Source: Candidatus Hermodarchaeota archaeon (GTDB lineage: Archaea; Asgardarchaeota; Lokiarchaeia; Sigyniarchaeales; SOKP01). From it: a DNA stretch of 59,596 nucleotides. The notes below the pieces were generated by a model. That model made no database searches and was not told the origin of the DNA. It saw nothing but the letters and a program-made list of their open reading frames with translations. Of this stretch, positions 6,864 through 58,593 are shown one piece after another. Positions within the stretch are counted from its first letter, which is position 1. Every line of letters starts with the position of its first letter. The position numbers and the translations under genes were made by a program. The stretch covers positions 1 to 59,596 of the forward strand of contig JBHLLP010000020.1 in assembly GCA_048885525.1 (NCBI GenBank). The letters are read 5' to 3'.

Positions 6864-8513
6864 TTAGTTTATTGTAAACCCTTTAAATAACTTTAAAAGA
6901 TACATTATTTCTTCAGAATTTTCAATTAGTCTTCTCAATTCAAAAGGGAAATTATTCAATTCAACCTCTTTTCTATTGGATACCCGTTCAATCATAATTT
7001 TTATAATTTCTTTATATTTTCTTACAGTATTACTTCCAGTTTCAATTTCAGAAATAACTTCCCATGCTTTATCTAATTTTCCGTTTAATATACATGAGAT
7101 AGATGCGAGTACATAGCTTTGTACTATATGAGAATGCCCTATTTTCTTAAGATTAGCAGCTTTATAATAATAACGATATAAATTGTTAACCATCTCCCTT
7201 AAAAGAAAATCTTTGGCGTCATCCAATTGTTCATAGAATTTTATACTTTCTAAAATAAGAGTCGCTGCGGTAAAAAATTGCTTATTTTTTAAACCTTCTT
7301 CAGCGATTTTATGTAATCCCCTAATTATTTGATTGAATATCCCAAATCTATTAAATTCTAATTCACCTTCTATAGCAATATCATAGGCATTTAAATAACT
7401 TTCAGTGGACTCGTTTATACTACTGATCTTCCAAAAGTTATCTCCTGCTTTAACATAATGCTTATAAGCCATTTCAAAGTTTTCCATATCTTTAAATATA
7501 TTAGCAGCATCAGCAAAATTTATCGCAGCTTGGTTAAAATCCTCCATTTTTTCTGAATAATTTCCAGCCAATAAAAAACAAGAAGCACATTCAATTAAAT
7601 TATTTTGTATATCTTGATAACATAATCCAGCTCCTCGGTAATATCGGGCTATCTTATGATAATTATCTTTACTTTTTTCAACATTTTCTGCTAGATCTAT
7701 ATAAGCTCCAGCCTCTTTTTTGGAGAAAATAGAATATTGATCTTCTTTATCTAAAATTTTATAGAGATTTTTCAATATCTGATAAATCTGAGCTAAGGTT
7801 AACTTATCACTTTTATCTTCATATTTTGTAGCTAAATTTGAGAAATATTCAACACCATCTAAAATTACATCTTGAGATTTGTTGTAATCATCAATTTCTT
7901 CATAACATGATCCTATCTGTCTGTAAGAGAAAGATAACATATCAAAATAGTTATGAAGTTTTGAAATTTTGATTACTCTTTCGTAATATTTTATGGCATT
8001 CTTGTAATCAAAAACTTTTAAAAATAATTCTGCGATATTTTGAAAATTTTGGGCGAGCTTTCTTGTTTCATTAAACTCCTTTAAAAGTTTACTTTCTTGG
8101 TTTAAGAATTTTATGCTATTTAGAAGATTTTTTTTCTCAGATTCTAAATCTTCAATTTTCTCACGATAAATATCCGCTATTCTTAAATATAATTCAGCAA
8201 TCTCATGTAATTTCGCTTGAAGTTTATAATCAACAATTAATTCTTTATAGAGCTCAATAATTTGTTTGTACAATTTGATCGCTTCAGAAAAATCAAAATT
8301 TTCTACAATTTCTGCTACAGAGAAGAGTAATTCTCCTGCTTCAAGAAATTCTCCAGATTGAGCAATCTCTTTAGAGAAATTAATAGAACCTTGAACCATC
8401 TCTTCTATAGCTTTTTCCTTCTCGATTGGATCCCTTAACTGTTTTATTTTAGATTCATCTTTTCGTATCTTATCTAAAAAATCTGTGTAATCGATGAATT
8501 CTTCTTCAATAAT
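6864..8513 (-). CDS. TPR-like alpha-solenoid protein with alpha/gamma-SNAP-like C-terminal half
   Basis: Repeated helical hairpins (EAGELLFSVAE, AAINFADAANIFK, AYKHYVKAGD). The frame is open 38 codons upstream of the track ATG (8399), to an ATT at 8513 behind GAGGAG. Confidence 0.7.
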   Translation of the reverse strand: MIEEEFIDYTDFLDKIRKDESKIKQLRDPIEKEKAIEEMVQGSINFSKEIAQSGEFLEAGELLFSVAEIVENFDFSEAIKLYKQIIELYKELIVDYKLQAKLHEIAELYLRIADIYREKIEDLESEKKNLLNSIKFLNQESKLLKEFNETRKLAQNFQNIAELFLKVFDYKNAIKYYERVIKISKLHNYFDMLSFSYRQIGSCYEEIDDYNKSQDVILDGVEYFSNLATKYEDKSDKLTLAQIYQILKNLYKILDKEDQYSIFSKKEAGAYIDLAENVEKSKDNYHKIARYYRGAGLCYQDIQNNLIECASCFLLAGNYSEKMEDFNQAAINFADAANIFKDMENFEMAYKHYVKAGDNFWKISSINESTESYLNAYDIAIEGELEFNRFGIFNQIIRGLHKIAEEGLKNKQFFTAATLILESIKFYEQLDDAKDFLLREMVNNLYRYYYKAANLKKIGHSHIVQSYVLASISCILNGKLDKAWEVISEIETGSNTVRKYKEIIKIMIERVSNRKEVELNNFPFELRRLIENSEEIMYLLKLFKGFTIN

Positions 8514-8763
8514 TTTTTTATCTCCTCAAACAAAATAAAACCTAAATATAGAAATTAATGTAAAAATAAAAAAAATTGGTTTTTAGTAAAAACTTATAAA
8601 AGATCAGTTCAATTTTCTTAAATTCGAAAATGGATAAAGAAAAGTAAATTATAAACAAAAATTTCTACAAAAACAAGAATTCATCGCAATCTGAAACGAA
8701 TAAATCTAAAGAAATAATATTAAATAGTATTACACGTATATTATTAATAATAAAAAAATGTAG

Positions 8764-8982
8764 GTGATTGTTATAAAACAAGTCTCAGAATTATTAGATA
8801 CTGGTCTTTATGAAACTTTTAAACCAGAAAAAACAATGACCGTGGCGGATTTATTAAGAGAACTCAACTTAGAAGATAAATATTTTGGGATACTAGTAGA
8901 TGGAAAGAAGGCTACACCCGAAACAGTTATTAATGAAAAGAGCGAAGTTGTCATATTACCCCATATCGCAGGTGGGATTTAA
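8764..8982 (+). CDS. Ubiquitin-like beta-grasp protein (SAMP/MoaD/ThiS type) ending GG-Ile
   Basis: TVADLLREL, ILVDG, VVILPHIAGG then one Ile and TAA. The start may be ATA at 8773 because the called GTG lies inside the AGGTGA SD. Confidence 0.8.
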   Translation: MIVIKQVSELLDTGLYETFKPEKTMTVADLLRELNLEDKYFGILVDGKKATPETVINEKSEVVILPHIAGGI

Positions 8983-31811: not shown

Positions 31812-31949
31812 CTATTTTTTAATAAAGAATTTTTTAGGGGATCGACACTTTGGACATCTATATTCTTTTTCATCTAGTTCTTCGAAAAGTTTGTCTTTCT
31901 CATCATTAACGTAAATATAATTACATATTTTACATCGGTATATAGAAAT
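31812..31949 (-). CDS. Second rubredoxin-like protein (45 aa), probable ATT start
   Basis: Not in the ORF track: (M)SIYRCKICNYIYVNDEKDKLFEELDEKEYRCPKCRSPKKFFIKK*. No ATG/GTG/TTG in frame; GAGGAG lies 6 nt upstream of the ATT. Confidence 0.75.
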   Translation of the reverse strand: MSIYRCKICNYIYVNDEKDKLFEELDEKEYRCPKCRSPKKFFIKK

Positions 31950-31973
31950 TATTATCTCCTCATTAAAATATAA

Positions 31974-44669: not shown

Positions 44670-45362
44670 ATGTTATTTTCTGAAAATGAAATGAATAATA
44701 TAAAAAGAGAAATGGCTAAACTAAAGGATAAAGTTGTACTTAAACTATTTACTGATTTTATAACAAAAGAAGATGGAAAAAAAATAAGAAAGTGTATGGC
44801 TTGTGAGGGAACTTACGAGTTATTAAAAACTCTAGAAGGATTATCTGATGGAAAGTTAGAAATTGATGAAATATCAACTGAAGAGAATGAAGAAGAAGCA
44901 AAAAAATTCAATGTTACTAAGATCCCAGCAATATTATTCGTAGATGAAAATGATAAAGAAATTATTCGATATTTGGCACATCCGACGGGATCTGAATTTG
45001 TACCCTTTCTCAATAGTATACAATATTTTTCAGGAGTGAGACCTTATTATGCGGATCAAATCATAACTCATCTTAAAAAAATATCAAAATCAAATATGAA
45101 AATCTTTATAACACCAACATGTCCATATTGCCCTGCAACTGTTCCAGTATTAACCTTATTCGCAATAGTTTCGAAAGGAAAGATTTCAGCAGAAATTATT
45201 GATGTCAACTTAAATCCAGACATTGGCATGGAATACCAAGTCCAAGGTGTCCCACATACAGTAATAAATGAGAAGGATCATATTTACGGTATGTTTACGC
45301 CTCAAGATTTACTTGACAAACTCACCAAAGGAGAAAGAGATTTTGGAGGAATGTATGCTTAA
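44670..45362 (+). CDS. Protein disulfide oxidoreductase (PDO / AhpF-NTD-like), paralog 1
   Basis: Two Trx folds: CMAC and TPTCPYCP, VQGVP. ATG at 44670 after GGTGA. Confidence 0.88.
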   Translation: MLFSENEMNNIKREMAKLKDKVVLKLFTDFITKEDGKKIRKCMACEGTYELLKTLEGLSDGKLEIDEISTEENEEEAKKFNVTKIPAILFVDENDKEIIRYLAHPTGSEFVPFLNSIQYFSGVRPYYADQIITHLKKISKSNMKIFITPTCPYCPATVPVLTLFAIVSKGKISAEIIDVNLNPDIGMEYQVQGVPHTVINEKDHIYGMFTPQDLLDKLTKGERDFGGMYA

Positions 45363-47092: not shown

Positions 47093-47407
47093 TTATTCAA
47101 TATTAATTTCAATACTGTGGAACTCGGGCTCTTTAAAAGGGACCTCAATCTTTAGAAGTCCGTTTTTATAAACCGCTTTTGCCTCTTCCGGTTTTATGGG
47201 ACAACAAACAGTATAGGAACCTATATAAGTTGTATCTTCTGTTTCTCCTTTAATGAAAAAGCTATCTTCATGCATTTTAAGTTTAATTGTGTCTTTTTCT
47301 ACTCCAGGTAATTGAATTTCAATCTTGTAAGTATTATCTTTATCATCAGCCCAAGAACACACCTCTGGAGACATTAAATACTTTTCAGTTTCTTTTACTT
47401 CAGTCAT
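47093..47407 (-). CDS. Small heat-shock protein (Hsp20)
   Basis: LPGVEKDTI, AKAVYKNGLLKIEVP, C-terminal IxI; ATG at 47407 after AGGTGA. Confidence 0.88.
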   Translation of the reverse strand: MTEVKETEKYLMSPEVCSWADDKDNTYKIEIQLPGVEKDTIKLKMHEDSFFIKGETEDTTYIGSYTVCCPIKPEEAKAVYKNGLLKIEVPFKEPEFHSIEINIE

Positions 47408-56637: not shown

Positions 56638-57600
56638 TTACAATACATTTATAAATATATTAATAATAATTATAACTGCGCTGAATCCTACTAAACCAAT
56701 CAAGAATTTCAATGGGTTTCCTTTCTCTTTTTCGGGGATTACTTCCCTAACAATTACATATAAAATCACACCAGAAATGAAGGAATAGAAAATAAATAAG
56801 AGTTCAAAATTAACTGGTAAAAACGAAATTAGTATTAATCCAATTATTATTCCCGCGAAGGCAGAACTGCAAGAAAGATATTTTATAACTGGATTTTCTT
56901 CAACCTGTTGTTCTTCATAAATTTCGAGATCAGTGAATATAAGATGTGCTTCAGATCGTTTAGTTACAATAGTTCTGAAAAATGCGTATATGAAAAAAAG
57001 AATTCCCCCCACTAACTCAATTCGTAATAAGCCTACTAAAATAAGGCCTACAAGAAAGTGATAAATATAATCTGTTACAAACCGGAAGTTAGTTAGCTCT
57101 TTATTAATCTTATTTTGAATCTTAATTTTATAGTTATTGATTTCTGTTTTCATTTCCTCTTCTTGGTCATTTAATTCAGATAATGTCCGAGCTATTTCTC
57201 TTAGAGCAATTTCATCCAGATGTTCATGCGTTAATTCTTTTGTAAGAATTTTTTCCATGTTATGTTCAACATTTTCTAGGATTTTCTCTTTTTTGATTAA
57301 TTTTCTCATCTTTTTTTGAGTCCTCATCTCAACTTTCTGTAAAATTAATTTTTCAGATACATGAATAAATGAAAAACCAATAAGTACAAAGAGATATTCA
57401 AATAGTTTTAAATGAAAAGGAAATTCAGGTAATCTTTCAGCGATTTCAGGAAGCACTATTAAAAAGAAATAAGATACTGATATTCCCGCTATTAATGATG
57501 CATGAACTTGAATAAGTTTATTTTCAAAATAATCTGCGATAAAAAATAAAACACCAAAAATTAAAGCAAGAATCAGAACTATTATTAAATTAACACTCAT
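56638..57600 (-). CDS. ZIP-like membrane protein with long cytoplasmic coiled-coil insert
   Basis: AGISVSYFFLIVLPE and SFISGVILYVIVREVIPE resemble ZIP TM2/TM7; about 90-aa charged insert. Confidence 0.6.
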   Translation of the reverse strand: MSVNLIIVLILALIFGVLFFIADYFENKLIQVHASLIAGISVSYFFLIVLPEIAERLPEFPFHLKLFEYLFVLIGFSFIHVSEKLILQKVEMRTQKKMRKLIKKEKILENVEHNMEKILTKELTHEHLDEIALREIARTLSELNDQEEEMKTEINNYKIKIQNKINKELTNFRFVTDYIYHFLVGLILVGLLRIELVGGILFFIYAFFRTIVTKRSEAHLIFTDLEIYEEQQVEENPVIKYLSCSSAFAGIIIGLILISFLPVNFELLFIFYSFISGVILYVIVREVIPEKEKGNPLKFLIGLVGFSAVIIIINIFINVL

Positions 57601-57717
57601 TAATATTGAAAATAGATTTAAAAATTATTAAAGTTGTAGTAGTAAACTAGAATTATAATATTCTGATTGATTGAGATAAAGACATAGTGGTAAAAAAAAG
57701 CACTTAGGTGAAATTTA

Positions 57718-58593
57718 ATCCAGTTTCTAATCATAACTTCAACCGAAGATAAAGCCTCAATGAATATACGTGACAAATTTTTGAATTCCAAATCTTTTAA
57801 GTTTGAAAAAGTTGATTCTAAATGGCATGATAATCCTGTTTTTAAACTAAAACAAGATTCAACTAAAAATGAGATCTTTTTGGGCTTAACTAGGGATCCT
57901 CTTATTTTTTTGAACAATTTAAAATTAGAGCAATCCGAATTAAAACCGGATTATCTTATTTTTGCAAGTCGTCATACCTCAAAAACTGCTCGCCCAGCAT
58001 TTTTAGTTCACACTACTGGTAATTGGAGTAAAGATGCTGATTTCGGTGGAGATCCTCAAGATTTATCAAAAACAAGTGCTTTACTTCATAAAGCCGGTTT
58101 TATATCGTTAATTGAACAAGAAATTCCTAATACATTAATAGGATTCTCACTTGATATAGAAGTGACTCATCATGGCCCTACAATCTTAGATAAACCTTTA
58201 ATTTTCATGGAATTAGGAAGTAGTAAGTTAGAATGGAGAATAGAAGATGCAGGGGGGATATTGACAAATACCATCATTAGTGCTATTCAGAAATATATTG
58301 AATATAAAGAAATGGGAAGCCAAAATGTAGGTTTAGGTTTTGGAGGTACACATTATGCTCCAAATTTCCATAGATTAATTAAAAATCAAAATCTTGCCAT
58401 GTCTTTTATATGTCCGAAATATTATATACAAGATTTAAACAAAGATTTGATTTACCAAATGGTAAATAATACTCTTGAAAAGGTTGATTATTTTATAATC
58501 GATTGGAAAGGGACTAATTCCGAAGATAAAAAACATTTGATGCCTCTTTTAGAAGATTTTAACATCCCAATAAAAAAAACAAAAGACTTCTAA
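57718..58593 (+). CDS. dtdA: D-aminoacyl-tRNA deacylase (archaeal DtdA/DTD2)
   Basis: FASRH, VHTTGN, EVTHHGP, FMELGS, GFGGTHYAP, PKY, IDWKG. The conserved N-terminus (FLIITSTEDKASMNI) lies upstream of the first ATG (57760), implying a start at ATC 57718. Confidence 0.92.
   Translation: MQFLIITSTEDKASMNIRDKFLNSKSFKFEKVDSKWHDNPVFKLKQDSTKNEIFLGLTRDPLIFLNNLKLEQSELKPDYLIFASRHTSKTARPAFLVHTTGNWSKDADFGGDPQDLSKTSALLHKAGFISLIEQEIPNTLIGFSLDIEVTHHGPTILDKPLIFMELGSSKLEWRIEDAGGILTNTIISAIQKYIEYKEMGSQNVGLGFGGTHYAPNFHRLIKNQNLAMSFICPKYYIQDLNKDLIYQMVNNTLEKVDYFIIDWKGTNSEDKKHLMPLLEDFNIPIKKTKDF

Follow-up and report, generated by a model that had tools for sequence, protein, structure and literature searches.

The dtdA gene is located on the forward strand at positions 57718..58593 of the window, which is the whole stretch of 59,596 nucleotides of Candidatus Hermodarchaeota DNA that was analysed. 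It comprises 291 codons followed by TAA, and its assignment to the DTD2-type D-aminoacyl-tRNA deacylases is supported by the Pfam family PF04414, by structures in the Protein Data Bank (PDB) and by an AlphaFold2 model. Minus-strand genes are present on both sides of dtdA in the list of open reading frames (ORFs). Between the neighbouring minus-strand gene at 56638-57600 and dtdA there is a divergent intergenic region (57601..57717, forward strand as read here), wherein A/T-rich, putatively TATA-like tracts are seen. The opposite-strand placement of both flanking genes makes dtdA the first gene of its own transcription unit and rules out coupling to an upstream cistron; translational coupling was rejected as a candidate on these grounds. 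A promoter and a short leader should be expected within 57601..57717.

A Shine-Dalgarno (SD) sequence, AGGTGA, is located at 57706..57711 on the forward strand and is complementary to the 3' end of 16S rRNA (...GGAUCACCUCCU). The 16S 3' end of this genome, found on contig C32, reads GGATCACCTCCT, and the AGGUGA of the dtdA leader can pair with this end of the rRNA (GAUCACCUCCU). The last three nucleotides of the SD (57709..57711) form a TGA stop codon in the dtdA frame, two codons before the proposed start. This stop closes the dtdA frame, and thus translation from further upstream is impossible. After the TGA the frame reads AAT TTA ATC(57718) CAG TTT CTA ATC ATA ACT TCA ACC GAA GAT AAA GCC TCA ATG(57760), wherein the ATC at 57718..57720 is the proposed dtdA start codon and is separated from AGGTGA by 6 nt. 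The SD, the orthologues and the contigs discussed below all bear on this choice. There is no ATG, GTG or TTG in the dtdA frame between the TGA and 57760, according to both the sequence and the ORF list, and stop codons close all three frames no more than about 30 nt upstream of dtdA.

The first canonical start is the ATG at 57760..57762, which encodes Met15 of the extended protein and is the start chosen by gene callers, such that the canonical product in the ORF list spans 57760-58593 and has 277 amino acids. No SD is present in the sequence before this ATG. A TTG follows at 57781..57783 (codon 22). For comparison, the window carries GGTGA separated by 4 nt from the ATG at 44670, and AGGTGA separated by 5 nt from the ATG at 47407 on the minus strand. 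In this genome, ATG starts are located 4-8 nt from GGTGA, and the spacing before the dtdA ATC falls within this range. The first-pass annotation had described the positions of the SD, the in-frame TGA and the ATC, the lack of a canonical start before 57760 and the two ordinary ATG starts that share the SD, and each of these descriptions is exact.

It had also been claimed that FLIITSTEDKAS belongs to the DtdA fold. The extended protein matches PF04414 with 191.7 bits (cut-off 33.6) over profile positions 3-204 of 205, and it matches PDB entries 2gfq from P. horikoshii (E = 1e-43) and 1yqe from A. fulgidus (E = 3e-33). Both structural alignments begin at residue 6 of the stop-to-stop translation, i.e. 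at LIITST, and thus homology to the solved DTD2 members is full-length and includes the N-terminal strand and the D-x-A-S-x-N-I motif. In the AlphaFold2 model, which was built on 36 orthologues and has a mean pLDDT of 92.5, codons 2-8 (QFLIITS, 57721..57741) form strand beta-1 (residues 2-8, assigned E by DSSP) and residues 12-22 form a helix, with pLDDT values of 96-97 in these elements. The claim therefore stands.

Met15, which is nearly invariant in the family, falls within helix 1 of the model, and initiation at 57760 would be predicted to leave out strand 1 together with the first turn of helix 1. Phe3 and Ile5 are invariant among orthologues and their codons exhibit synonymous changes; codon 2 specifies Gln, Glu or Lys, and the invariant Phe of codon 3 is encoded by TTT or TTC. 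The ORF is intact over its 291 codons and retains all residues that are invariant in the family. The product is a DTD2-type D-aminoacyl-tRNA deacylase, with its activity predicted from homology. It resembles the Pyrococcus and Archaeoglobus enzymes (2gfq, 1yqe; PF04414) in fold and family over the whole length. Those proteins, to judge from where their N-terminal strand falls in the alignment, are initiated at the homologous codon, which here is ATC.

A six-frame search of 40 relatives located dtdA in 38 of 41 genomes, and a scan of species-representative genomes added 45 dtdA loci from the Promethearchaeota (Loki-type Asgard archaea). Twenty-two genomes of the same genus carry GGTG(A), 6 nt and then ATC, ATT or ATA (collectively ATH), with one ATG among them. 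Alignment of DtdA N-termini across relatives, which had been suggested as a check on the ATC start, was carried out with 65 loci representing 51 distinct proteins. The codon homologous to 57718 is ATC in 25 of these loci, ATT in 19, ATA in seven, ATG in nine and TTG in one, and three further loci have an ATG 1-3 codons upstream of it. Within the close clade the codon is ATC, ATT or ATA and always follows GGTG(A) by about 6 nt, and in total ATH is found at the dtdA start in some 40 distinct related genomes. Most deeper branches have ATG at the homologous codon, giving a protein that begins M-E/Q/D-F-L-I-I-T-S. On a maximum-likelihood tree, a minimum of 17 changes of start-codon label is required, some of them exchanges between ATH and ATG.

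There are six loci (L022, L048, L056, L057, L060 and L062) in which TAA directly precedes the ATH codon, and in these there can be no in-frame translation from upstream. A few loci differ further downstream. An ATG is present at codon 4 in L015 and L045 (F-M-I-I) and a TTG at the same codon in L010 and L014, and it is possible, judging from these codons, that these species use a slightly later start. Loci L010 and L014 also have no ATG at the position homologous to 57760, where CTC and TTG are found.

Nucleotide variation was examined among 37 distinct orthologous sequences of the ATH clade. At the three positions of the start codon the entropy is 0, 0 and 1.44 bits, such that variation is confined to the third base, with A and T fixed. 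Over the next 19 codons the mean entropy by codon position is 0.38, 0.21 and 1.18 bits. Upstream of the start, entropy is flat at about 1.4 bits except at GGTGA, which is located at -11 to -7 and is conserved in 89-97% of the sequences, and its flanks are not conserved. The three-nucleotide periodicity thus sets in exactly at codon 57718. This pattern indicates that protein-level constraint begins exactly at 57718 and that the ribosome binding site is the sole conserved upstream element. Comparison of the orthologues in this manner shows the 14 codons at 57718-57759 to be coding.

These characteristics cause us to favour translation of dtdA from the AUC at 57718, as the first-pass annotation had proposed, and we place the probability of this reading at about 0.88. 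Of the readings considered, this one alone accommodates the comparative data. The support comes from the invariant A and T, the onset of periodicity, the conserved GGTGA, the six loci with an abutting TAA and the ATG codons of the deeper branches. If synthesis instead began at ATG 57760 or TTG 57781, the protein would have no strand 1 and the upstream similarity would be a relic. Gene callers do yield products of exactly 277 and 270 amino acids, and the near-invariance of Met15 would suit a start at 57760. However, the 14 upstream codons exhibit codon-position-specific constraint with many synonymous changes among the 37 sequences, and in both the model and the solved homologues they make up strand 1 and the opening turn of helix 1. 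The ATG at 57760 in particular lacks an SD and is absent from L010 and L014, and the ATG of most deeper relatives is the codon homologous to 57718 rather than this one. Initiation at 57760 or 57781 is consequently improbable. An equally small chance is given to initiation at one of the nearby non-canonical codons CTA 57727, ATC 57730 or ATA 57733. These are likewise near-cognate or Ile codons, and codon 4 is ATG in L015 and TTG in L010 and L014, but the three codons are located 15-21 nt from the SD, compared with 4-8 nt for ATG and ATH starts in this genome. Moreover, codons 2 and 3 are under protein-level constraint, whose onset is exactly at 57718.

Another class of explanation holds that the ATC is not what the ribosome encounters. 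Recoding of the codon ahead of translation (such as RNA editing to AUG) has nothing specific in its favour, although A-to-I editing could in principle cause AUA to be read as AUG. Known deaminase editing cannot turn ATC or ATT into AUG, yet these are the commonest forms of the codon. Readthrough of the TGA, a frameshift or another use of an upstream start was rejected, because all three frames are closed upstream, only the SD is conserved there and TAA directly precedes ATH in the six orthologous loci. Recoding, readthrough and frameshifting together are judged highly improbable. Least probable of all are a decaying pseudogene and a sequencing or assembly error that conceals a true ATG. In their favour, the sequence comes from one metagenome-assembled genome and ATC is one base removed from ATG. 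An ATG at 57718 had been named as a finding that would overturn the ATC start, and none was found. The contigs of two samples of the likely source study (X1 and X3) are identical over 57594-58100 at a depth of 15-21, and the contig of a relative from a different study (X5) has GGTGA, 6 nt and ATC; this is a comparison of contig letters, wherein minor variants are not visible. Together with the approximately 40 independent genomes that carry ATH, these contigs exclude an assembly error, and the intact ORF of 291 codons with its family-invariant residues argues against a pseudogene.

There are three further ATH cases in the window, all of which had been listed in the first-pass annotation. The first is an ORF for a 69 amino acid ThiS/ubiquitin-like protein (8762..8982, forward strand, including its SD; PF02597) that ends in GGI, and it has AGGTGA (8762-8767), 5 nt and ATA at 8773. 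The homologous codon is ATA in nine relatives, ATG in five, GTG in two and GTA in one. The second is an ORF for a 549 amino acid TPR/SNAP-like protein (6864..8527, minus strand), wherein GAGGAG (8527-8522) is followed by ATT at 8513 and the next canonical start is located at an offset of 38 codons. All 18 of the other same-genus genomes examined have GAGGAG(A/T) and then ATT at this site, and in one of them there is a TAA two codons upstream. The third encodes a 45 amino acid rubredoxin-like protein with a weak match to PF21349 (31812..31961, minus strand), and it has GAGGAG (31961-31956), 6 nt and ATT at 31949. There is no canonical start anywhere in this 45-codon ORF. Among 14 relatives, eight have ATT or ATC at this codon, three have ATG, one has GTT and in two a TTG is found at this codon or adjacent to it; two of the eight also have an in-frame ATG just upstream. 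Relatives thus retain either ATH or an ATG, GTG or TTG at or next to the codon in each of the three cases.

The suggestion that relaxed start-codon selection is a trait of the lineage was pursued by a count over the whole 3.58 Mb genome (GC content 29.4%). For every GGTGA, the codon at each spacing was recorded as opening an ORF if an in-frame stop occurs upstream before any canonical start and if the ORF has at least 100 codons. This is a simple rule based on ORFs and SD sequences and does not involve a trained start model. At a spacing of 6 nt, ATH opens an ORF in 25 of 299 instances, compared with 22 of 2506 for non-start codons (Fisher p = 3e-13). The individual values are 11/137 for ATT, 10/105 for ATA and 4/57 for ATC, and those of the canonical codons ATG and TTG are 8/42 and 5/64. 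Control codons remain near 1% (TAT 3/121, TTT 2/143, AAA 1/168). When spacings of 5-7 nt are pooled, ATH opens 45 of 576 compared with 53 of 4600 for other non-start codons (p = 1.6e-18), and ATG, GTG and TTG open 47 of 308 (47-48 ORFs).

The signal depends on distance, with ATH rates of 6.8-8.4% at 5-7 nt and of 1.2-1.6% at 8-9 nt. The second-position near-cognates ACG, AAG and AGG exhibit no enrichment after GGTGA in the whole genome under the same rule, and CTG opens an ORF in 3 of 55 instances. When any 5-mer of AGGAGGTGATC is accepted as the SD, about 70-80 more ATH starts are counted than the background accounts for, corresponding to 2-3% of genes and about one fifth of the starts led by an SD; this looser scan is noisy, with a background of about 1%, and serves only for this rough figure. 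The counts support the proposal that ATT, ATA and ATC with a strong SD would start genes about as often in this genus as ATG, GTG and TTG do behind GGTGA.

As an independent test, Pfam was run on 27 ATH candidates in which 10 or more codons separate the ATH from the next canonical start, and 18 of them have a Pfam match. In 12 of these 18 the domain begins before the first canonical start. The domains concerned include CorA (domain from residue 68, canonical start at 145), the rubredoxin-like domain of a rubrerythrin (residues 6-34, canonical start at 96) and peptidase M28 (from 101, canonical start at 158). A HIT/DcpS_C protein (25 versus 63), a Hef helicase with DEAD/ResIII domains (20 versus 52), Abhydrolase_1 (21 versus 46), AFOR_N (6 versus 31) and a Ras-type GTPase (2 versus 25) are also affected, as are RmlD (3 versus 12) and UQ_con, whose domain likewise begins before the first canonical start. 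The remaining two are the ribosomal proteins uL16 (21 versus 40) and uS10 (5 versus 13).

The start of uS10 is well conserved. All 20 same-genus genomes have GGTG(A/G), 7 nt and ATA at this site, and other families of the order mostly have ATG at that codon, with one ATT. Two genomes of other families have an ATG 1-2 codons upstream. Thus, the genome-wide count, the Pfam domains and the conservation of uS10 agree with the earlier suggestion of a lineage trait.

The gene for the initiation factor aIF1 is itself among the users of such codons. On contig C32 the aIF1 ORF reads TAA GAC AGC ATT, with no ATG, GTG or TTG before the domain, and a second paralogue on contig C2 has GGAGGTGA, 8 nt and ATA. 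Neither paralogue has a usable canonical start, and the gene for the fidelity factor therefore starts at AUH, as is the case for bacterial infC. A tRNA survey returned 13 (without introns) and 34 (with introns) genes with aragorn and 24 with the Rfam tRNA model, which is an incomplete set, and the initiator tRNA was located by its anticodon-arm motif. This tRNAi gene has A1:U72, a GGG/CCC anticodon stem, the anticodon CAU and one intron. An initiator with an altered anticodon was therefore rejected for the one tRNAi found and, since this tRNA is ordinary, an altered anticodon is probably not the cause of the ATH starts.

The proposed mechanism is that pairing between the SD and the anti-SD would set the small subunit such that the codon 6 nt downstream sits in the P site. 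The ordinary Met-tRNAi (CAU) would pair with A and U and tolerate the mismatch at the third position, and aIF1 would either tolerate this mismatch or be tuned to permit it. DtdA would then begin Met-Gln-Phe-Leu-Ile-Ile-Thr-Ser, with Met as the presumed first residue, and strand 1 and the beginning of helix 1 of the DTD2 fold would thereby be made. Perhaps the weak codon also lowers or tunes expression, keeping DtdA at a low level, or it may be nearly neutral in this lineage. ATC, ATT, ATA and ATG replace one another often on the tree, which points to a small cost of an ATH start here.

A broader reading is offered tentatively, and its components taken together are possible rather than probable. 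It holds that this lokiarchaeial genus has a changed start-codon regime, wherein the third base is largely ignored in the presence of a strong SD, aIF1 is subject to feedback and the initiation apparatus has changed. If so, the regime probably extends to the family, and AUU, AUA and AUC may routinely start 2-3% of genes, those for ribosomal proteins among them. By analogy with infC or with eukaryotic eIF1, aIF1 that is started at AUU or AUA may set the stringency through feedback. The cause may be a specific change, such as in residues of aIF1 or aIF2 or in the modification of C34 of tRNAi.

Comparable starts are known from bacteria. The E. coli genes infC and pcnB have SD-dependent AUU, AUA or AUC starts, and ATT, ATC and ATA are listed in NCBI table 11. 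Both there and here, the codon is a third-position variant of AUG that is located at a normal distance behind an SD and is conserved between species, and it is presumably read by the initiator tRNA. Both sets of starts include the gene for a start-codon proofreading factor, which is infC in bacteria and aIF1 in this lineage. However, such starts are rare single-gene exceptions in bacteria, whereas here they equal the canonical ones behind GGTGA (45 versus 47-48) and include ribosomal proteins. The machinery also differs, with archaeal/eukaryote-type aIF1, aIF1A and aIF2 here and IF3 in bacteria, and any autoregulation here would by analogy be that of aIF1. Mitochondria use AUA, AUU and AUC starts alongside AUG (genetic codes 2 and 5). 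Their mRNAs are leaderless and their tRNA-Met carries a modification (f5C34), and AUA also specifies Met during elongation in many lineages. In contrast, AUH specifies Ile inside the genes examined here (as in the ATC ATA of LIITS), the starts are SD-dependent and the tRNAi gene is ordinary.

In the bacterium Deinococcus deserti, non-canonical initiation codons were found by N-terminal proteomics (PMC2830850). The resemblance to the present case is that ATC and other non-canonical starts occur above expectation and that annotation needs correction; the difference is that direct protein evidence is available for D. deserti, whereas the evidence for these Asgard archaea is comparative. The start codons given for archaea in reviews are AUG, GUG and UUG (PMC7531240, PMC4705826), and AUU is nowhere mentioned in the text of one of these (PMC7531240). 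SD-led mRNAs and aIF1 as fidelity factor are common to the described archaea and to the lineage examined here, and aIF1 promotes the rejection of wrong initiation complexes in archaea (PMC7531240). Ribosome profiling of Haloferax assigned about 30% of putative alternative initiation sites to near-cognate codons, which were set aside as possible false positives (PMC7261190). Unlike the ATH codon of dtdA, those sites are not starts of main ORFs that are conserved across species (PMC7261190). Within the part of the literature searched, no paper was found that describes AUH starts for Asgard archaea. The evidence supports lineage-wide ATH start sites in an Asgard genus, the starts themselves being of a kind known in bacteria and mitochondria.

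Archaeal initiation proceeds with the eukaryote-type factors aIF1, aIF1A and aIF2. An archaeal genus wherein AUH rivals AUG behind an SD, even at aIF1, would constitute a natural experiment on start stringency near the eukaryotic stem. The changed regime, if true, would provide a natural system for the evolution of start stringency in the closest archaeal relatives of eukaryotes.

There are also consequences for annotation. Standard gene callers admit only ATG, GTG and TTG, and they thereby remove strand 1 of DtdA, deprive dozens of proteins of their P-loops or N-terminal domains and miss small genes outright, as with the 45 amino acid rubredoxin-like ORF. Because searches for eukaryotic signature proteins draw heavily on Asgard proteomes, the systematic loss of N-termini introduces bias into structure prediction, domain calls and phylogenies. 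The anticipated truncation by gene callers is evident for dtdA itself. The 277 amino acid product of ATG 57760 is present in public collections by exact look-up, and the representative of its cluster has 270 amino acids and is encoded on a contig of 59,596 bases, the same length as the window. This size of product fits a call from TTG 57781, which is probably where the 270 amino acid public product starts. Relative to the 291 residues of the extended protein, the public dtdA calls are 14 or 21 residues short.

There are two public gene calls at the locus of dtdA, which encodes a DTD2-type D-aminoacyl-tRNA deacylase with a proposed ATC start at 57718, and the N-terminal beta-strand of the protein is absent from both products. 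The call of 277 amino acids begins at ATG 57760 (57760-58593) and comes from a different assembly, where its contig measures 139,140 bases. The call of 270 amino acids is found on a 59,596-base contig and has a size that fits initiation at TTG 57781 (57781-58593). A run of eight A nucleotides (57692-57699) is located just 5' of the Shine-Dalgarno (SD) sequence of dtdA, and the leaders of orthologous genes exhibit moderate conservation of A-rich tracts at positions -20 to -26.

Extra partial dtdA-like fragments are present in two related genomes. One matches residues 206-293 with 68% identity (G023:C1:521881-522144), and the other matches residues 2-75 and carries two stops (G001:C292:16028-16249); both are probably gene remnants. 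Three genomes that belong to another family (G030:C22:58452-59405, G034:C40:4640-5581 and G037:C431:1757-2752) show a dtdA match split into two pieces within a single open frame of 324-364 amino acids, which suggests that a few tens of residues are inserted near residue 200.

ATH start codons (ATT, ATC or ATA) are used by both members of a divergent gene pair at 6864-8982. The minus-strand gene encodes a TPR/SNAP-like protein of 549 amino acids from an ATT start, and the plus-strand gene encodes a ThiS/ubiquitin-like protein of 69 amino acids, ending in GGI, from an ATA start. These two genes are also near each other on a shared contig in relatives (e.g. G008:C8, G015:C17 and G003:C9). A rubredoxin-like ORF of 45 amino acids (ISIYRCKICNYIY...CPKCRS; 31812-31961, minus strand) lacks ATG, GTG and TTG codons altogether and is kept in about 15 genomes of the same genus; a gene caller would overlook this entire gene. 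In several relatives, a second, distinct rubredoxin-like gene with an ATG start is located near the homologue of this ORF.

There are two paralogues of the start-codon fidelity factor aIF1/SUI1 in the source genome (G000). The minus-strand paralogue (G000:C32:32305-32520) reads TAA GAC AGC ATT AAA GAT GAT GAA..., wherein no canonical start precedes the domain. The plus-strand paralogue (G000:C2:79646-79861) carries GGAGGTGA, followed after 8 nucleotides by ATA, and its in-frame GTG codons are confined to the SD sequence.

The initiator tRNA gene (G000:C32:9579-9689, plus strand) has the A1:U72 pair, a GGG/CCC anticodon stem and CAU, and is interrupted by a 32-nucleotide intron immediately 3' of the anticodon loop. 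Standard searches pick up just 24-34 tRNAs in G000, and many tRNA genes of this genome therefore probably contain introns or adopt unusual forms.
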